Positions 27,806 through 36,057 of a DNA stretch of 64,000 nt are shown piece after piece. This DNA is from Vicinamibacterales bacterium (GTDB lineage: Bacteria > Acidobacteriota > Vicinamibacteria > Vicinamibacterales > UBA2999): the NCBI GenBank assembly GCA_035575715.1, contig DATLXN010000011.1, forward strand, positions 6,354 through 70,353. The letters are read 5' to 3'. The notes beneath the pieces are model-generated. The model worked only from the letters and a program-made list of their open reading frames with translations, was not told where the DNA came from and made no database searches. The position numbers and the translations under genes are program-made. Numbering within the stretch: position 1 is the first letter of the stretch; the number at the start of each line of letters is the position of its first letter.

Positions 27806-28858
27806 GTGCGCTACCTACTGGCCAGCCTGCTCGTTGTCTCCACTCTGAGCGCGCAGACGACCCCTGCTGCGCAGCCGCACCCGGAGGCGACTCAGGCCGC
27901 GGTCGCCGCCTACATGTGCCCGATGCACCCCGATGTCATGTCAGCGGTGCCCGGCAAGTGTCCGCGCTGCAACATGGATCTGGTGCCGGTCCCGGCCAGC
28001 GCGTATGTCTGCCCGATGCACCCCGACGTCATGTCGGCCACGCCAGGCACCTGCCCACGCTGCAATATGACGCTCATTGCCGGCAGCCCGATCACCATGC
28101 CGGATTTCCGGCTGCATCTGGAGACGACTCCCAAGGTGATCAAAGCGGGACAACCGACGAAATTTCGCTTTACCGTCCGGCATCCGCTCACCGGTGCGCC
28201 GGCGCGTGAGTTTGCGACGCTGCACGACAAGCTGTTCCACCTGTTCGTCATCAGCCGCGACATGAATGAGTTCGCGCACATTCATCCCGAACATCATCCG
28301 GATGGATCGTTCACGATCGAGCACACGCTCCCCAAGCCGGGACACTACACGCTGTTCTCTGATTTCCTGGCAATCGGCGGCGGCGCGCAGATCGTCGCCA
28401 CACCGATCGTCACTGCCGGCGTCGAGCCCGACATCATGGCGTCGCAGGCGCGTTTGCAGCCGGATCTGCCATGGACGCGAGTTGTTGATGGCGTGACGGT
28501 GGATCTGCTCAACGAGCCGACGACGTTTCTCGGCGGCGAAGAGATTGATCTGGTGTTCCGCTTCAGGAACTCCGCCAATGAAACACCGATCACCGACCTG
28601 GAACGCTATTTAGGCGCCTGGGGACACCTGCTGATTCTCAGCGAGGACATGACCGAATACGTTCACGCTCATCCGCGCGAAGAGACGCAGCCGGAAGCCA
28701 CGGTCCCCACCTCTGGCGGCCCCGAGGTGATCTTCGACGCGCTGCTGCCCAAGCCTGGCCGCTATCGGGCGTGGCTACAGTTCCAGCGGCAGGGCAAACT
28801 GACGACCGTATCGTTTACGTTTGCCGCACCACGGCCGGGCGAAACGCCGCAGTCCTGA
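27806..28858 (+). CDS. periplasmic heavy-metal-binding protein: two tandem CPMHP...CPRC motifs plus two YtkA/FixH-like His-rich domains
   Basis: Signal peptide present. Y(M/V)CPMHPDVMSAxPGxCPRCNM occurs twice, at nt 27911-27988 and 28004-28078. It is followed by FAHIHPEHH and YVHAHPRE segments. Confidence 0.65.
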   Translation: MRYLLASLLVVSTLSAQTTPAAQPHPEATQAAVAAYMCPMHPDVMSAVPGKCPRCNMDLVPVPASAYVCPMHPDVMSATPGTCPRCNMTLIAGSPITMPDFRLHLETTPKVIKAGQPTKFRFTVRHPLTGAPAREFATLHDKLFHLFVISRDMNEFAHIHPEHHPDGSFTIEHTLPKPGHYTLFSDFLAIGGGAQIVATPIVTAGVEPDIMASQARLQPDLPWTRVVDGVTVDLLNEPTTFLGGEEIDLVFRFRNSANETPITDLERYLGAWGHLLILSEDMTEYVHAHPREETQPEATVPTSGGPEVIFDALLPKPGRYRAWLQFQRQGKLTTVSFTFAAPRPGETPQS

Positions 28859-28889: not shown

Positions 28890-29606
28890 ATGATCATTCG
28901 GCACGGCGGCGACTCGCTGCTCCTCATCACCCAGCCGGATCACGCGGCCTTGGGCGGCCGCATGATGCGGGGGTGGCAGCGCGATGCGCTCCAGCGGTCG
29001 GCGCGGCGTGACGAGATATTGATCGCGGTCGAACAGCACGATCACGGCTGGTCGGAACCTGACGCCTCGCCGATCGTCGATGTCGACAGCGGGAAGCTGC
29101 TCGATTTCATGGCTGTGCGCGATGACGTCAAGCGTGACGTCTGGCCACGAGCGGTTGCCCACCTGGCCGCGACGCCGTATGCCGCCGCTCTGGTCGCACA
29201 CCACGCCATTCACGTCTATCGCCGTTATCGACCGCATCCGGAGTGGTCGGCGTTTTTCAAAGAGATGGAGCGGCTGCGCGCCGATCACATTCGCGCCAGC
29301 CGGCCGCTGACGCTCAACGAGTTGTTCCTCGACTACCGCTTCGTGCGTCTCGGCGATCTGCTATCGCTGACCTTCTGCAACGCGTGGACTGAGCCGCAGA
29401 CCGGCGACGACAACCAGTTCCGGTTTCACCTCGACGGCGACGTTTTGCGTGTCAGCCCAGACCCGTTTGCCGGCGCCGAAATCCCGTTCGAGATCGATGC
29501 TCGGCAGTTGCCCGACCGCGCCTACCGCTCCAGCGACGATGCGGCGACGGCCTTCGCGGCTGCGCCCATCGTCACGCTGCGCGGCGCGCTGATCGGGAGT
29601 GACTGA
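28890..29606 (+). CDS. DUF3891-like hypothetical protein
   Basis: The start was set to ATG 28890 (MIIRHGGDSLLLITQPDHAALGGRMMRGW). The family assignment is from recall of the DUF3891 N-terminal pattern only. Confidence 0.45.
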   Translation: MIIRHGGDSLLLITQPDHAALGGRMMRGWQRDALQRSARRDEILIAVEQHDHGWSEPDASPIVDVDSGKLLDFMAVRDDVKRDVWPRAVAHLAATPYAAALVAHHAIHVYRRYRPHPEWSAFFKEMERLRADHIRASRPLTLNELFLDYRFVRLGDLLSLTFCNAWTEPQTGDDNQFRFHLDGDVLRVSPDPFAGAEIPFEIDARQLPDRAYRSSDDAATAFAAAPIVTLRGALIGSD

Positions 29607-29619
29607 CGCCGTGTTGATA

Positions 29620-29791
29620 CGGCTGCAGGATAGCGCGGAGATCTGCTCGGCCACGCGCTAACAGATTGCGCGCTCGTTCATAAGGCCAGCCGAACACGTC
29701 CTGGATCTCCGACACACCGAGGCCACTCAATCAGACCCGCCAGCTGCGCATCCGCTTCAAATGTGGCGATTGCCTGGGAGTTAGTGTTCAA
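29620..29791 (-). pseudogene. possible frameshifted remnant of a sigma-70 region-4 (HTH) segment
   Basis: The minus strand reads (M)NTNSQAIATFEADAQLAGLIEW, then shifts one frame. It continues GLGVSEIQDVFGWPYERARNLLARGRADLRAILQ. The pattern resembles ECF sigma region 4.2. There is no intact ORF. Confidence 0.25.
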
Positions 29792-29878
29792 ATTAAGTCC
29801 TCAGTTACTAACGCGAGAACTGAGACAGAATCGGCGGAGCGCAGAAGGCGGCCGTCCGGTCGTCAGGACCAGCGGCCC

Positions 29879-32800
29879 ATGACCACCCCCCCACCCAACC
29901 TCGTCACCCGACTCCTGCTCGACTGGAGTGCTGGAGATAAAGAGGCCTTCGACCAGCTGGTCCCGCTGGTTCATGAGGAACTGCGGCGATTGGCCGAAGG
30001 CTACATGCGTCGCGAGCCCGCCGGGCACACGTTGCAACCGACGGCGCTCGTGAACGAGGCCTACCTTCGCCTGGTCGACCAGCGCCGGATGCGGTGGCAG
30101 GATCGCGCCCACTTCTTTGCCATTTCGGCGCAGATGATGCGTCGCATTCTTGTCGACCACGCACGCAAGCGCCGCTACGCCGAACGCGGTGGCCCCGACG
30201 CGATCAAGATGAACCTCGACGAAGCCCTCGACTTCTCTCAGGGACGCGCCGCTCACGTCGTCGCACTGGACAATGCGCTCAGCCAGCTCGCCAAGGTCGA
30301 CCCGCAACATGGCAAGGTCGTCGAGCTGCGATTTTTTGGTGGATTGACGATCGAGGAGACCGCTGACGTGCTCGGATTGTCGCGCGACAGGGTCAAGCGC
30401 GAGTGGGCGACTGCGAAAGAGTGGCTAACGCGGGAGCTCACCGCGCAGACGGCGGAAGGTAGCGAACCGGTCAGTGCTCAGAAGACCGGGCCTTACGAGA
30501 TCCTCGAGCAGCTGGGCGCCGGTGGAATGGGCGAGGTTTTCCTCGCGCATGACAGTCGCCTCGGGCGCAAGGTCGCGCTCAAGCTGCTCCCCTCCTACTT
30601 CATCAACGACGGGGAGCGGTTGCAGCGCTTTCAGCAGGAGGCCAGTGCCGCGTCGCGGCTGAATCATCCGAACATCGTCACCATCTACGAAGTCGGGCAG
30701 CTCGATTCCGGTCCCTACATTGCGACTGAGTACATCGACGGCGTGACGTTGCGCGCATGGATGGAACAGAAGCACCTGAGCGTCAGCGATGCGATTGACG
30801 CCGCGCTGCAAGTCGCCTCCGCTCTGGCGGCCGCGCATGCCGCGGGCATTGTCCATCGAGACATCAAGCCCGAGAACATCATGGTGCGGCGCGATGGCTT
30901 GTTCAAGGTGGTCGACTTCGGACTCGCCAAGCTGACCGAACCGGGAGTTGCACCGATTTCGCCGGACCTGGCGGCGACCAAGCGGCTGCTGTTCAAGACC
31001 GATCCCGGCACGGTGATGGGCACGGTGATCTACATGTCGCCGGAACAGGCACGTGGCTGGGTCGTCGACGCGCGCACCGACATCTGGAGCCTTGGGGTCG
31101 TGCTCTACGAAATGGTCGCCGGTCAGCCACCGTTTGACGGCGGCAGTGTCGCGGACATCCTGGTGTCGATTCTCGACCGCGGCGCGCCGCCACTGACCCA
31201 TCCTGGTGGCGTCCCACCTGAACTCGCGCGCGTCGTTGCGAAGGCGCTGCACAAGGATCAGGAGCAGCGCTACGCGCAGGTCGACGATCTGATGCGGGAT
31301 CTGCGCGTGCTTCAACAGGATCTCAGCTTCGCCGAGCAGTTGCGGCGCAGCACCCAGGGTGAATCGATCGCCCCGGAGACGCCCGCGATCGAGACGGCCG
31401 CGCCAGAGGCGTCGGGGCGTCGCGCGCATAACTTCTCCACGCAGCGGAGCACCCTCATCGGTCGCGACACCGAACTGGCCCTGCTCAACACGCGGCTGCG
31501 GGACGACGAGGTGCGTCTGGTGACCCTGACCGGGCCCGGCGGTACCGGCAAGACGCGGTTGGCGTTGCAGGCGGCGGGCGATGTGGTCGACGCGTTCGAT
31601 CACGGCGTCGTCTTCGTGGCGCTGGCTGCCATCAGTAATCACGAGGTCGTCGCGTCGGCGATTGCTCAAGCGCTGGGGGTTCAGGAGACCCGCGAGCGAA
31701 CGTTCGCGGCTGGGCTGATCAACTATCTGCGCGATAAAACGATGCTGCTGGTGTTGGACAACTTCGAGCAGGTGGCGCCAGCCTCGCTTCTGGTCGCGGA
31801 CCTATTGGCGTCCTGTCCACAGGTCAAAGTGCTGGTCACCAGCCGCGCCCCGTTGCAGCTGTCCGACGAGCGGGAATTTCAGGTGCCGCCGCTGGCCCTG
31901 CGACAAGCAGAAGTCCTGTTCGTGCAGCGGGTCATGGCGGCTAAGCCGCAGTTCGCGTTGACCACCGACAGCGCGCGCGTGATCAGTGAAATCTGCGCAA
32001 GGCTCGACGGGCTCCCGCTGGCGTTGGAACTGGCGGCGACGCGTATCAAGCTGCTGTCGCTGGAAGAAATCTCGGCGCGGCTTAACCAGCCGCTGCAGCT
32101 GCTGCAGGGCGGAGCCAAAGATTTGCCGCCGCGCCAGCAAACCATGCGCGCCACGATTGCATGGAGCTATGACTTGCTCAGCGACGACGCACAAATGTTG
32201 TGGCGCCGGCTGTCGGTGTTCGTCGGCGGCTTCACGCTGGCCTCGGCAGAGGCGGTGTGCAGCGACATCAACGGCGTGACCATTGCGGTGCTCGATGCGC
32301 TCGAGTCGTTAGTGGACGAGAGCCTGGTCCAGCGCAAGGACATCGGCGACGGCACCTATCGCTTCCTGATGTTGGAGACCATTCGCGAATACGGACTGGA
32401 GCGCCTCGCGGCGAGCGGCGAGACCGCCCAATTGCGACGGCAGCATGCGATGTTCTGCGTTGACCTCGCGGAGGACGCAGAGCGGCATCTGCGGAGCGTG
32501 AGGCGCGATCCGTGGCTGGCGAGGCTCGAAAGCGAACATCACAATATCGGCGCGGCGCTCCGCTGGACGCTCGACAACGATGAGACCGAGATGGGCCTGC
32601 GGCTGGTCGGTGCTCTGCGCTGGTTCTGGTATCACCGCGGGCATATTGGTGAGGGATATCACTGGGCCACCGCGTTGCTCGCACGACAAGACGCGACGGC
32701 GTCTGTCAAGGCCAGAGCCAACGCCTTATACGCCGCCGGAAGTCTGGCGTTCTATTACAGCGATCCCACTGCCGCCGGCGCGTTACTCAGGGAAAGTGCA

Positions 32801-33367
32801 GTGCTGTGGCGAGCACTCGGCGACCGTCAATCGCTCGCCTATGCGCTGACCTTCACCAGCCTGCCGATTCACCTCGGCGAACGGGATTTCCCTGAGGCGC
32901 GCACCACTGCTGAAGAGGCGGTAGCGCTGTTCAGGACTCTCGATGATCCGTGGGGGCTGGCGTTGTCGCTCAATTACGCCGGCATCATCCTCTGGACCGA
33001 ACCGGGGGCCGAACAACAGGCGACGGCGATGCTCAAGGAGAGCGTGTCGTTGTTTCGTGGCCTTGGCGATGGCTGGGGTGTCGGCGGGGCCGCTCTTTAT
33101 CTCGGCGGCATGCACCAGGACCGCGGCGAAGTTCAGGAAGCGCGGGCGTTGTACGAAGAGTTCGTTGCAGTGATCCGTGAGTCGAAGGATCTGTGGCGGC
33201 TGGCGTCCGGCTTGGAGATCCTTGCGTCGTTACTCCGCGACGAAGGAGAAGACGCACGCGCCGACGCCTTGACTGAGGAGAGCACCACACTGCAACGCAA
33301 GCTGGGCCGATCGCTCAGTCTCAAGAAGGCGTGGGATCAGATGAAACTCGCTCGGCAACGCAGCTGA
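29879..33367 (+). CDS. multidomain fusion: ECF-type sigma factor, Ser/Thr protein kinase, STAND/AAA NTPase, TPR repeats
   Basis: Sigma part, aa 1 to about 190: LLLDWSAGDKEAFDQLVPLVHEELRRLA and RFFGGLTIEETADVLGLSRDRVKREW. Kinase part: GAGGMGEV, VALK, HRDIKPEN, DFGLAK, SPEQ. NTPase part: Walker A GPGGTGKT (31532-31555) and Walker B LLVLDN. The C-terminal 450 aa or so are TPR-like. One continuous 1162-codon ORF. Confidence 0.8.
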   Translation: MTTPPPNLVTRLLLDWSAGDKEAFDQLVPLVHEELRRLAEGYMRREPAGHTLQPTALVNEAYLRLVDQRRMRWQDRAHFFAISAQMMRRILVDHARKRRYAERGGPDAIKMNLDEALDFSQGRAAHVVALDNALSQLAKVDPQHGKVVELRFFGGLTIEETADVLGLSRDRVKREWATAKEWLTRELTAQTAEGSEPVSAQKTGPYEILEQLGAGGMGEVFLAHDSRLGRKVALKLLPSYFINDGERLQRFQQEASAASRLNHPNIVTIYEVGQLDSGPYIATEYIDGVTLRAWMEQKHLSVSDAIDAALQVASALAAAHAAGIVHRDIKPENIMVRRDGLFKVVDFGLAKLTEPGVAPISPDLAATKRLLFKTDPGTVMGTVIYMSPEQARGWVVDARTDIWSLGVVLYEMVAGQPPFDGGSVADILVSILDRGAPPLTHPGGVPPELARVVAKALHKDQEQRYAQVDDLMRDLRVLQQDLSFAEQLRRSTQGESIAPETPAIETAAPEASGRRAHNFSTQRSTLIGRDTELALLNTRLRDDEVRLVTLTGPGGTGKTRLALQAAGDVVDAFDHGVVFVALAAISNHEVVASAIAQALGVQETRERTFAAGLINYLRDKTMLLVLDNFEQVAPASLLVADLLASCPQVKVLVTSRAPLQLSDEREFQVPPLALRQAEVLFVQRVMAAKPQFALTTDSARVISEICARLDGLPLALELAATRIKLLSLEEISARLNQPLQLLQGGAKDLPPRQQTMRATIAWSYDLLSDDAQMLWRRLSVFVGGFTLASAEAVCSDINGVTIAVLDALESLVDESLVQRKDIGDGTYRFLMLETIREYGLERLAASGETAQLRRQHAMFCVDLAEDAERHLRSVRRDPWLARLESEHHNIGAALRWTLDNDETEMGLRLVGALRWFWYHRGHIGEGYHWATALLARQDATASVKARANALYAAGSLAFYYSDPTAAGALLRESAVLWRALGDRQSLAYALTFTSLPIHLGERDFPEARTTAEEAVALFRTLDDPWGLALSLNYAGIILWTEPGAEQQATAMLKESVSLFRGLGDGWGVGGAALYLGGMHQDRGEVQEARALYEEFVAVIRESKDLWRLASGLEILASLLRDEGEDARADALTEESTTLQRKLGRSLSLKKAWDQMKLARQRS

Positions 33368-33458
33368 GCGCCACCTTTTTGAGCGGCAATCTGCACCAAG
33401 GAGTCGTGCCATGACTGGGAGCCGCCGTGCGTCGTGTTGTCTCGCGCGTCGCAGGCGA

Positions 33459-34607
33459 TTACCGACGTGCGACGGTAAGCCAGGTCTGCGCTTTCGCCGT
33501 GATCGGCTGATCGGTGAGGTTATCGAAGTAGGTGTTCACTACCAGCCGTGTGCCGATCGGTAGCGGCACAGGGGCCGATAAGTAATATGGCGAGCGCCAC
33601 TCGGGACGGAAGTCCTTGACCCATAGCAACGGCGTGACCACCCCGTCGGGCGTCGTCGCAATGACTTCAATTGACCGCGCGCCCGCACTCGGCGCCGGCC
33701 ACAGCGCCAGCGCCGACGACGCGGTGGCCAGCTTCATTTCGCTGCGCACGCGATGGCTCGAACTCCCCGCGGCGAGGGTCTGGCTTGCGCCGCCAAGCGA
33801 TAGCGCCTCGACCACCCGATCGGTGCCGGCGCCGAAGTACAGGCCGATCTCACTGATGTCAGTCACGGTTTCTTCGGCTCCGCTGTAGCCGATCTCCACG
33901 ATGATCTGCGCGCCTGCCGGCAGCCGCAAGGCGGTGCCTTCGGGCAGATGCGTCGTGGTCTGCCACGGCGTCCACGCGCCCAGCCAGCGCCCGTTGCCGG
34001 ACTCATAGAAGGCGGCGTGGCGCACGACGCGTCGATCACCCTGCTTCAAGCCAATTGCATGAACGCGGCGCGGTGCGGTCAATCCGGTCGCCACCACGAA
34101 GCGCTTGACCTCGAATGGAGACGACGCTGCAACGACCTGGCCTTTGCCCACCGCGATGACCTGATCAGGGGGGCCGTGATCCCACAACGGTGCTGGCGGG
34201 ACATAGACCGGTGGGATGCCCTCATCAGCCTTGAGCACGCCACTGGGCGCCCCGCCGTCGGCCCACGACAGGATGATCTCCATCTCACGCGCGGTCAGGC
34301 TGATGTCGTTGGAGAAATGACCATAGCCGGGCACCGCCGTCCACGGTGGCATGCGGCGTTCGAGGATCTCTTCGCGAATCGCGCGCGCCCATGGCCTGGC
34401 GTCGGTGTAGGTGAGCAGCGACACGCCGAGATTGCGCTCGGTGTGGCACTGGAAACACTTGCGCTGGAAAATCTGCGCGATCTCGTTGCGGAACTGGACG
34501 CTGGTGGTAATTGGCTTGTGCGGGTACGCGGGCGTGGGAAAGGCAAGAACCACGGCCAGCAGACCCAGCGCGGCGACGCAAGCGTAGGTGAATATCTTCC
34601 CAGTCAT
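33459..34607 (-). CDS. heme-c domain protein fused to a degenerate PHM/DBH-like (copper monooxygenase) fold
   Basis: TM/signal segment, then CFQCH heme motif and MPPW. The C-terminal part aligns by eye with the upstream paralogue but lacks its HH, HxH and Met copper ligands. Confidence 0.55.
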   Translation of the reverse strand: MTGKIFTYACVAALGLLAVVLAFPTPAYPHKPITTSVQFRNEIAQIFQRKCFQCHTERNLGVSLLTYTDARPWARAIREEILERRMPPWTAVPGYGHFSNDISLTAREMEIILSWADGGAPSGVLKADEGIPPVYVPPAPLWDHGPPDQVIAVGKGQVVAASSPFEVKRFVVATGLTAPRRVHAIGLKQGDRRVVRHAAFYESGNGRWLGAWTPWQTTTHLPEGTALRLPAGAQIIVEIGYSGAEETVTDISEIGLYFGAGTDRVVEALSLGGASQTLAAGSSSHRVRSEMKLATASSALALWPAPSAGARSIEVIATTPDGVVTPLLWVKDFRPEWRSPYYLSAPVPLPIGTRLVVNTYFDNLTDQPITAKAQTWLTVARR

Positions 34608-34640
34608 CAGTTACTCACCTTACACCGACGATCCACAGAA

Positions 34641-34677
34641 GCACGGAAGCACGAAATGACTTTCCGTGTTTCCGTGC
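34641..34677. repeat. hairpin built from CACGGAA/TTCCGTG words
   Basis: The left arm GCACGGAAGCACGAAA spans 34641-34656 and the loop is TGAC. The right arm TTTCCGTGTTTCCGTGC spans 34661-34677. TTCCGTG occurs at 34662 and 34670. The hairpin lies between the two cytochrome/monooxygenase genes. Confidence 0.8.
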
Positions 34678-34701
34678 CTCGAAGACCGTCGTCGGGCTGC
34701 G

Positions 34702-36057
34702 CTACTGCTGCGGTTGCGCAGTGGTCGTGACGCGGTCCTTATCGACGCTGTACATCACGCCGGTGTACTGCATCTCTTCCCAGGTCTGGTCGCCCCAGTA
34801 GACCGGTTGCGTTGAATCCGGATTCGCTTTGTTCGCTTTGGAGTTGTCGTAGTGGGCGACCGCCTTCAACACCGAACCTTTCGGGATCCGCAGCGGCTGC
34901 GCAAACGCGTAATCGGTCTGCCAGTTGAAGTCGTAGTTCGGCACCGACAGGATCACTTCGTTGCGTCCATCGGGATGAGTCAGCCGGTACTCCCACTGCT
35001 TGCCGCGCACGTGCGTATGCGGCGCAATGCTGTAGACGGTGACGTCCTCGAGAAACTCGAGGCCGGATTCAACCGGATGATTGGCTTCGCCCGCGGGGAT
35101 CATGAACCGCGGGTTGACCATCGCCGCGGCGCGCACTTCCGACGCCGGCGCCTGCGTCGCGAACTTGAAGCCAATGCTGGTTGTGTCGGTCGATGGCTTG
35201 CCGTTCGAGGTGTAGTGAATCTGGAACGTCAATACCGACCCAGCCTGCAGCAACATCGCGGTCCCCGGCGGGAAGACCGTGGCGTTGGTGCCGGGCGCGA
35301 TCTGCGCGATCAGCGGACCGCGGCTGGTCCCCTGGTTCGGGGCGCCGCCGCGGGCCTTCGCTGCTTCCATTTCTTTGATCATCGTCGGCGACAGGGGACC
35401 GCCGGGAGGATTGGCCTGACGGAAGGCCGGCGCGCGCCGGGTCATCTTTGGCGGCCGCGCATAGACCAGCACGTGATGGACGACCGAACGATCACCCGGT
35501 CGAATCTCCATCGCCTGAACCCACTTATCCTCGGTGAGATTAGTCGGCATCTCGAAATACTGGTAGTCGATCGTGCCCTGAGCGGGCACCGCGTACGGCG
35601 TGGCCATGCCGACCACGGCGTCGGGCTGACCGATCGTCCAGCCCTTGGCAAAGGACGGCAGCTGCGGGAGGTCCTTCTGGTCACCCTTTGGCGAACCGGC
35701 GGCGACCCACCGGGTGATCGTCTCTTTCTCGGCGGTCGTCAGTCGGCGCTCGTTGAGAAACTTGCCGTGCGCCGGATCGGCGTGCCACGGCGGCATGGTG
35801 CCGTTGACGACGTTGTCACGGATCGAGCGCGCCCACGGGCGCGCCTCGTCGTAGGTGATCAGTGACATTGGAGCCACTTCGCCCTCGCGATGACAGCTCA
35901 CGCAGTGCTTGTACAGGATCGGCGCGACATCCTTTGCGAAGGTTGGAGCCGCTGCCGCTCGAGCGCCCTGCGCCTCAGGCCGGCCGGGGGATACGACCAG
36001 TGAGCCAAACAGGAACACGCCGAACGCCGCCGAAAACCGGCCGAACAGATGGGTCAT
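34702..36057 (-). CDS. heme-c domain fused to a type-II copper monooxygenase-like domain (PHM/DBH family pattern)
   Basis: Signal peptide present. Heme-c motif CVSCH, with APM and MPPWHADP. Candidate copper ligands VVHHVLVY, FQIHYT, APHTHVRG (HxH) and EEMQY. YDFNWQ is also present. These match my recall of the PHM CuH (H,H,H) and CuM (H-x-H, M) sites. Confidence 0.6.
   Translation of the reverse strand: MTHLFGRFSAAFGVFLFGSLVVSPGRPEAQGARAAAAPTFAKDVAPILYKHCVSCHREGEVAPMSLITYDEARPWARSIRDNVVNGTMPPWHADPAHGKFLNERRLTTAEKETITRWVAAGSPKGDQKDLPQLPSFAKGWTIGQPDAVVGMATPYAVPAQGTIDYQYFEMPTNLTEDKWVQAMEIRPGDRSVVHHVLVYARPPKMTRRAPAFRQANPPGGPLSPTMIKEMEAAKARGGAPNQGTSRGPLIAQIAPGTNATVFPPGTAMLLQAGSVLTFQIHYTSNGKPSTDTTSIGFKFATQAPASEVRAAAMVNPRFMIPAGEANHPVESGLEFLEDVTVYSIAPHTHVRGKQWEYRLTHPDGRNEVILSVPNYDFNWQTDYAFAQPLRIPKGSVLKAVAHYDNSKANKANPDSTQPVYWGDQTWEEMQYTGVMYSVDKDRVTTTAQPQQ

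Follow-up and report, generated by a model that had tools for sequence, protein, structure and literature searches.

A natural in-frame fusion of an ECF43-type sigma factor, its partner kinase, a STAND switch, and a TPR sensor, probably a phospho-switch, in a soil acidobacterium

The window examined here is a stretch of 64,000 nucleotides (nt) from a soil acidobacterium (Vicinamibacterales bacterium, assembly GCA_035575715.1; contig DATLXN010000011.1, positions 6,354 to 70,353), and our subject is a single gene within it, 29879..33367 on the forward strand, whose product joins an extracytoplasmic function (ECF) sigma factor, a Hanks-type Ser/Thr kinase, a STAND NTPase, and a tetratricopeptide repeat (TPR) sensor in one chain. 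We consider it probable that this product, hereafter the window protein, arose when an ECF43-type sigma factor and its partner kinase, the latter equipped with a STAND switch and a TPR sensor, were naturally fused in frame, and that it works as a phospho-switch. The evidence comes from the region 2.2 motif of the sigma part, from related loci in which the same domains are encoded by two overlapping genes, and from the spacing between the sigma and kinase motifs in fused and split genes.

Results

A sigma factor with an ECF43-type signature

The gene is one open reading frame (ORF) running from ATG to TGA through 1162 codons with zero internal stops, in agreement with the first-pass annotation, which had described a single polypeptide of 1162 amino acids (aa) made of sigma, kinase, NTPase, and TPR parts in that order. 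All four parts are complete according to Pfam and NCBIfam profiles and AlphaFold models (Table 1); when the domains were mapped with profiles, the sigma and NB-ARC matches lay above their cut-offs, the Pkinase match was strong, and the TPR match was weak.

The sigma part matches the Sigma70_ECF profile PF07638 at aa 9-188 with E 1.4e-53 and 182 bits (cut-off 21.1), spanning positions 4-184 of the 185 in the profile, and NCBIfam TIGR02999 with 210.6 bits (cut-off 126.15). Both matches uphold the earlier claim of a complete ECF sigma with regions 2 and 4 between aa 1 and about 190, and the alignment reveals no degenerate motif, all conserved blocks being kept. In canonical sigma factors an acidic DAED (DxxD) motif in region 2.2 contacts the beta-prime clamp helices of RNA polymerase. 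Here QPTA, which includes Thr55, takes the place of DAED within HTLQPTALVNEAY, and this region 2.2 block recurs in 15 aligned relatives. The description as an ECF sigma therefore stands, but the protein is not a generic one; it resembles the ECF43 kind, whose activity depends on phosphorylation.

Sigma factors of the ECF43 group are by nature inactive until a neighboring Hanks kinase phosphorylates a threonine, which is T63 in EcfP (phosphorylated by PknT) and T51 in EcfK (phosphorylated by PknS) (PMC8999054, PMC13147305). The group consensus is QTTA, and the phospho-Thr is conserved in 88% of members (PMC13147305). Thr55 is the predicted equivalent of these two phospho-sites, and the sigma part as a whole can be labeled putatively ECF43-type, a label grounded in the Pfam and TIGRFAM matches together with the region 2.2 motif. 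With this signature, the idea of a self-contained transcription system gains a published mechanism to borrow.

Relatives encoded as two genes

A homologue search of 5.8 billion proteins gave 7816 matches, of which thousands are kinase-NB-ARC-TPR proteins without a sigma part; the named sources are all Acidobacteriota. Besides the window protein only two have all four domains, P0002 and P0003 (each 59% identical to it, from JGI metagenomes). The nearest sigma-less relatives (P0004 to P0015) are 59-63% identical and begin with about 85 extra residues, in which a conserved helical module lies. Their gene context is instructive. In locus L003 a gene for a 195-aa PF07638 sigma factor overlaps the kinase-NB-ARC-TPR gene of P0006 by 14 nt, the two being in different frames, and the contig of P0007 has the same 195-aa sigma upstream with the same 14-nt overlap onto the kinase gene. 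These split pairs encode the same four domains in the same order as the window gene, each domain being 60-69% identical, but in two genes, and the kinase keeps an N-terminal segment of about 85 aa that includes the module. As far as sequence can tell, they are its unfused orthologues.

The sigma domain of the window protein is 69% identical to the free 195-aa partner sigma, as against 50% to the other ECF43 sigma in the genome. The latter is encoded at C1:105682-107750 (L002 7683-9751) by the one other ECF43-type sigma gene of this genome, which overlaps by 4 nt the gene of a 503-aa kinase with C-terminal transmembrane segments; it forms a classical split pair. Identity to the relatives is even along the window protein, at 65-69% in the sigma, 64-69% in the kinase, 60-67% in the NB-ARC domain, and 57-65% in the winged-helix and TPR parts, and falls to 13-36% in the linkers.

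The region 2.2 motif and the HRD motif of the kinase lie 1031-1226 nt apart in 51 split loci taken from species-representative genomes, and 1035-1165 nt apart in loci of the order; the window gene has 828 nt between them, and L001, the locus that encodes P0002, has 882 nt. Among the 51 loci, sigma and kinase lie in different frames in 41, and in the other 10 they share a frame with an intervening stop. Long open frames in four genomes of the order (G063, G158, G153, and G165) were considered as fused genes and turned out on inspection to be split pairs; in G158 (locus L019) the frame is common to sigma and kinase, and a stop codon divides the two.

In the window protein about 16 residues separate the last sigma helix from the first kinase strand, and the linker AQTAEGSEPVSAQKTGP occupies the place taken in the split relatives by the sigma stop codon followed by the N-terminal module of the kinase. 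Together, the split orthologues, the even domain identities, and the shortened spacing indicate that the window gene is a cognate sigma/kinase pair fused in frame, with loss of the sigma stop and of that module. The first-pass annotation had regarded the STAND module as an addition to a sigma-kinase fusion, and this we do not retain: kinase-NB-ARC-TPR proteins are an abundant acidobacterial family, and some of them are encoded after a free ECF43 sigma.

A module deleted from the fused kinase

An unnamed helical module of about 55-70 aa is common to the N-termini of partner kinases whose genes follow those of ECF43-type sigmas (L003 4001-4260; L002 8240-8460; L022-L101). Its consensus is ERWxxVExLxxxALExxPxERxAFLxxACxGDxxLxxEVxSLL, extending to ...Ag.FlE.PA. 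By eye the module is found in about 43 of 45 partner kinases; the 503-aa kinase of the same genome also carries it. A Pfam scan of the module gave no match at E values up to 10. The window protein lacks it.

We propose, tentatively and with more doubt than attaches to the phospho-switch itself, that the fusion is a working single-chain path from signal to transcription in which the STAND module gates phosphorylation of its own sigma, and that the N-terminal module is a dock for the sigma. On this proposal the module would be dispensable once the sigma is covalently tethered, and a docking role would explain its deletion both here and in at least six other short-junction fusions.

Kinase, switch, and sensor

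Domain boundaries were taken from AlphaFold models, one of the full-length protein (predicted local distance difference test, pLDDT, 84) and one of aa 515-1162 (pLDDT 89.8; predicted template modeling score 0.78). The Pkinase profile matches aa 206-466 (E 5e-50), the sequence matches PknB (E 4e-52), and Foldseek aligns the model to 5u94 with a target-normalized TM-score of 0.89. Each motif quoted in support of a Hanks kinase with a full catalytic set could be located: GAGGMGEV at 213-220, VALK with K235, HRDIKPEN at 326-333, DFG at 346-348, and SPEQ at 387-390. To these can be added E254 (the alpha-C Glu), D328, N333, and D346, as well as T374, T378, and T382 in the activation loop; the catalytic residues are invariant or nearly so among aligned relatives. 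The domain is a PknB-like kinase of the Hanks type, with every feature of that set.

The NB-ARC profile matches aa 536-765 with E 2.9e-14 and 53.3 bits (cut-off 23.5), and the region matches the plant NLR At5g66900 (E 1.5e-7). Walker A (GPGGTGKT, 552-559) and Walker B (LLVLDN, 623-628), on which a STAND-type P-loop NTPase had been proposed, are joined by TSR at 654-656 and GLPLA at 711-715, and the proposal is sustained. For the full-length model Foldseek returned kinases exclusively; for the model of aa 515-1162, which covers the STAND-TPR half, the best match was 6mfv, followed by plant NLR resistosomes, CED-4, and Apaf-1, with LGN/Pins for the TPR part. By its motifs, its domains, and its repeat sensor, the STAND module belongs to the NB-ARC/AP-ATPase clade.

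The C-terminus is TPR-like, as had been said, but shorter than the 450 aa or so first given: because the models place a winged helix at aa 769-846 and the repeats at 849-1161, the TPR part comes to about 310 aa. The TPR_12 profile gives a weak match at aa 1073-1140.

We also considered an anti-phage STAND protein (Avs-like) or a kinase defense system (PD-T4-6, MADS, BREX PglW) and rejected both, because the PADLOC and NCBIfam matches hardly extend past the kinase domain (aa ~180-583) and the neighbors are not defense genes. The NCBIfam defense matches of the window protein are far below cut-offs.

Other sigma-kinase fusions

P0002 and P0003 have a junction in common that is unlike the window protein's, with 34 rather than 16 linker residues and with part of the segment that follows the module retained; the shared junction indicates that they were fused before they diverged. 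Their identity to one another is 75% in the sigma, 77% in the kinase, 73% in the NB-ARC domain, and 77% in the TPR part, and this even divergence indicates that the tethered sigma has been under purifying selection, with a constraint similar to that on the catalytic domains. In a tree of the kinase-STAND-TPR part (a quick search with Shimodaira-Hasegawa-like approximate likelihood ratio test support), P0002 and P0003 group in a clade whose sisters are sigma-less proteins, and the window protein falls outside it. These positions require at least two fusion events.

The loci of P0002, P0003, P0013, and P0014 share their neighbors, a PQQ_2 gene upstream and genes for VWA, M20/M28, and S9 peptidase proteins downstream. 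With sigma fused in L001 and in the P0003 contig, a remnant in L005, and none in L004, these loci look like a small gain-loss series.

Long proteins carrying PF07638 fall into 78 clusters, most of them with Pkinase. The sigma is N-terminal to the kinase in 36 of the 78. Full sigma-kinase spacing is kept in 29 of these 36, about half of which match a strict pattern for the N-terminal module; the junction is shortened and the module missing in 7, the window protein included, and such short-junction fusions recur (P0130, P0180, P0189, P0190). Only P0002 and P0003 share the NB-ARC/TPR module with the window protein. The earlier statement that uncharacterized ECF-kinase fusions are present in databases is borne out by these clusters, and in the literature that could be searched we found no description of a sigma-kinase fusion. 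Fusion of this kind is recurrent but always sparse.

A further group has the reverse layout: about 20 clusters, of roughly 850 aa, start with a P-loop NTPase, continue with a Hanks kinase, and end in a complete ECF43-type sigma. Members include P0133, P0137, P0139, P0140, P0145, P0147, P0148, P0150, P0152, and P0154, among others, and their NTPase has GTRRxGKT at about residue 39 and weak ATPase_2 and AAA_22 matches.

Features and neighborhood of the fused gene

Table 1. Coordinates of the fused gene, its domains, and associated features in the window
Feature	Amino acids	Position	Strand	Basis
Whole fused gene, 1162 codons + TGA	1-1162	29879..33367	+	ORF; downstream gene convergent
Sigma region 2, four helices (6-17, 21-45, 54-65, 73-102)	6-102	29894..30184	+	PF07638, TIGR02999, model
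Region 2.2 motif HTLQPTALVNEAY	50-62	30026..30064	+	QPTA replaces acidic DAED
Thr55 codon ACG, predicted phospho-acceptor	55	30041-30043	+	ECF43 consensus
Disordered linker between regions 2 and 4	103-121	30185..30241	+	pLDDT <50 at aa 106-129
Sigma region 4, helix-turn-helix	122-191	30242..30451	+	Sigma70_r4 and r4_2; model helices 122-191
Putative fusion junction, linker AQTAEGSEPVSAQKTGP	189-205	30443..30493	+	Alignment, spacing, pLDDT <50 at aa 188-197
Hanks Ser/Thr kinase	206-492	30494..31354	+	Pkinase, PknB match, Foldseek; C-terminal helix 468-492
Disordered kinase-STAND linker	493-528	31355..31462	+	pLDDT <50 at aa 494-513; 29-36% identity to relatives vs 60-69% in domains
NB-ARC nucleotide-binding and helical domains	529-765	31463..32173	+	NB-ARC profile, NLR match, Foldseek
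Winged-helix domain of STAND module	769-846	32183..32416	+	Model helix/strand pattern; PF25872 HTH_77 on homologues
TPR-like sensor, 16 helices	849-1161	32423..33361	+	Model pLDDT ~90 or higher; Foldseek; weak TPR_12
Terminator-like hairpin over stop codon, then T-run		33349..33380	+	Consensus match alone

The fused gene is apparently monocistronic, to judge from a 272-nt gap to the upstream DUF3891 gene, the terminator-like hairpin, and the convergent orientation of the next gene. Upstream lie genes for an FG-GAP protein, a GT2 glycosyltransferase, an HMBD metal-binding protein, and DUF3891, and downstream two convergent heme/PHM-like genes. No anti-sigma domain was found among these neighbors, as the first-pass annotation had noted of the adjacent genes. 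In congeners only the DUF3891 gene is kept (45-53% identity), the other flanking genes not being conserved.

Some of the flanking genes are metal-related: the HMBD protein has two such motifs (27806-28858), the two heme/PHM-like genes are of the copper-monooxygenase type (33459-36057), and the gene of P0002 is itself adjoined by one for a MopE-like Cu-binding protein (L001 1853-2878). The occurrence of metal-related neighbors in two contexts may be a coincidence, or it may hint at the regulon.

Just upstream, in the gap before the fused gene and overlapping the end of the DUF3891 gene, a short frame on the opposite strand (29572-29730, -), LSGLGVSEIQDVFGWPYERARNLLARGRADLRAILQP, resembles the region 4.2 helix-turn-helix of an ECF sigma, with a possible continuation in a neighboring frame. 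It could be what is left of another sigma gene.

A promoter scan upstream of the fused gene found none of the sigma-70 type. Several free ECF43-type sigma genes of the order (L008, L009, L011, L015, and L016), and also L021 and L007, have in common an upstream box consisting of AATGCGGGAAC, about 20 nt, and GATCGTCA, followed nearer the start codon by TAGAAT. This arrangement may be an autoregulatory promoter of those sigmas. The AATGCGGGAAC...GATCGTCA box is not present upstream of the window gene, where CAGAAT occurs by itself at 29826-29831.

Discussion

If the window protein is a phospho-switch, as we think probable, its operation can be pieced together from better-known systems. By analogy with STAND proteins, a cytoplasmic ligand or protein would bind the TPR sensor and relieve the autoinhibition of the NB-ARC domain, which would then exchange its nucleotide and oligomerize. 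Kinase domains brought together in this way would auto-activate on T374, T378, or T382, as PknB-type kinases do, and the active kinase would, on the precedent of EcfP/PknT and EcfK/PknS, phosphorylate Thr55 of the tethered sigma, either in cis or between protomers. Phospho-Thr55 would supply the negative charge otherwise given by DAED, and the sigma, still attached or clipped off, would bind the beta-prime clamp helices of RNA polymerase and direct its regulon.

A number of observations weigh against this interpretation. A sigma held some 16 residues from a 970-aa oligomerizing protein may be sterically hindered on RNA polymerase. A T51A variant of EcfK still works, and a phospho-site in its linker is needed too (PMC13147305), so that Thr55 may not be the sole switch; the corresponding linker of the window protein has Asp114 in an alignment column that holds D or T in relatives, and it is our guess that this column is that of EcfK T106. 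We found no autoregulatory ECF-type promoter upstream of the fused gene, and a genome-wide search with the 8-mer TGCGGGAA gave 115 matches, which is uninformative and identified no regulon. The architecture is, moreover, rare. The exact protein is known from one contig. Among the matches listed from 400 genomes of the order, six congeners included, none is fused, and those listed cover the sigma part only, at 62% identity or less. None of the 51 scorable loci is fused either. The best 150 of 4628 sigma-family clusters (E 1e-30 or better) are all free proteins of 168-469 aa, which implies that the fused architecture has not spread. Finally, related syntenic loci have lost their sigma, L005 retaining a 51-aa remnant (2729-2884) and L004 (2528-4001) nothing, and the kinases of this family can therefore evidently work without one.

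The main rival explanation is that a recent, accidental in-frame deletion produced a neutral or decaying fusion in which the sigma is inactive or on the way to being lost and the protein serves only as a kinase-STAND-TPR protein acting on other substrates. A singleton that goes unseen in its congeners and its order (among the matches listed), whose orthologous kinases stand beside a sigma remnant or no sigma at all, whose sigma-less relatives number in the thousands, and which has no ECF-type promoter that we could find upstream, would fit such a history. We judge it unlikely all the same. The sigma part scores 182 bits over the full length of PF07638, near the 191-193 bits of the free partner sigmas, and it contains no degenerate motif; in P0002 and P0003 the tethered sigma has been conserved like the catalytic domains after fusing; and short-junction fusions without the module have recurred elsewhere.

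Less likely again is a processed precursor, in which fusion would serve to ensure 1:1 synthesis and proximity, the junction (aa 188-205) would be cut after activation, and the free phospho-sigma would act. This scheme has the attraction that a freed sigma escapes the steric problem, and the models predict disorder in the junction as well as in the kinase-STAND linker, both of which are poorly conserved. We identified no protease gene or cleavage motif, however, and ECF sigmas with large C-terminal extensions are known from the literature, which leaves the scheme improbable.

Two further explanations we hold to be very improbable. The split layout is the rule, with 0 of 51 loci fused, and two true genes might have been merged in sequencing or assembly by a missing stretch or an indel; but what sets the gene apart from its split relatives is that about 200 nt are missing in frame, rather than a 1-nt indel, the junction DNA (30380-30560) is without a homopolymer run, the genome has a completeness of 100% and a contamination of 0.41%, the gene sits inside a 154-kb contig, and analogous fusions occur in two other assemblies. 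Nor do we credit a PhyR-like mimic or decoy that, without binding RNA polymerase, would offer a docking or titration surface under kinase control: sigma-like mimic domains such as that of PhyR are known, and cyanobacterial r4-NB-ARC-TPR proteins fuse sigma pieces to STAND modules, but here regions 2 and 4 are full length with their conserved blocks, identity to a free-standing partner sigma is 69%, and no NepR-like or anti-sigma gene lies nearby.

By the features we could compare, the window protein belongs with the ECF43 sigma/kinase systems. EcfP-PknT of Vibrio parahaemolyticus and EcfK-PknS of Xanthomonas citri likewise lack DAED and have a conserved Thr (in QTTA there, in QPTA here), and they likewise involve a dedicated Hanks kinase and no anti-sigma factor. 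The pairing with a cognate kinase is also found, that kinase being fused here and encoded by the overlapping next gene in the orthologues. In EcfP and EcfK, phosphorylation activates the sigma for binding to the beta-prime subunit (PMC8999054, PMC13147305). The differences are that each of those systems consists of two proteins rather than one chain, that PknT and PknS are membrane receptors with periplasmic sensors whereas the window kinase is soluble and has an NB-ARC/TPR sensor, and that the N-terminal module of partner kinases is deleted in the window protein.

The ECF41 and ECF42-like "one-component" sigmas offer an analogous layout, not a group to which the window protein belongs. They too have a regulator fused C-terminal to region 4 and no anti-sigma factor, but their extensions (SnoaL-like, TPR, and others) work through contacts within the molecule, and the sigmas keep an acidic region 2.2. 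That acidic region is absent here, and the extension is homologous to separate partner kinases; in the literature we consulted, no ECF41/42-like extension is described with a kinase or a STAND NTPase.

The regulatory region of Mycobacterium tuberculosis PknK is reportedly of the STAND class, and its likeness to that of the window protein is one of domain class. PknK is similarly soluble, with its Hanks kinase at the N-terminus and ahead of the regulatory region, and it phosphorylates transcription regulators (PMC9045387), but no sigma is fused to it and its substrates are separate proteins. In structure the closest match to aa 515-1162 is 6mfv, a STAND protein with a TPR sensor (689 columns, E 1e-12), while NLRs and CED-4 align over about 360 columns with a root-mean-square deviation of 4-5 A. 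The effector domains of 6mfv, NLRs, CED-4, and Apaf-1 are none, CARD, CC, or TIR, never a kinase with a sigma. The cyanobacterial r4-NB-ARC-TPR proteins described in the literature have a region-4 piece only and no kinase.

Phosphorylation-activated ECF43 sigmas were demonstrated experimentally in 2018-2026, for two pairs only, both with membrane kinases. The parts of the window protein and their functional pairing are thus known, and it is the covalent arrangement and the type of sensor that are previously undescribed and rare. What the acidobacterial genes add is that soluble STAND/TPR kinases also pair with the ECF43-type sigma family, so that cytoplasmic signals can feed an "extracytoplasmic function" sigma. 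A pair that can be fused, and whose tethered sigma is under selection in one lineage, provides a compact natural construct in which to compare phosphorylation in cis and in trans, and a test case for whether a sigma still functions when it is joined to a large oligomerizing sensor. A single chain comprising sensor, kinase, and sigma could, in addition, serve as an orthogonal switch in synthetic biology. For the family as a whole, comparison of split and fused genes points to the unannotated N-terminal module of the kinases as a candidate sigma-docking element, and this candidate makes the recognition between kinase and sigma directly testable.

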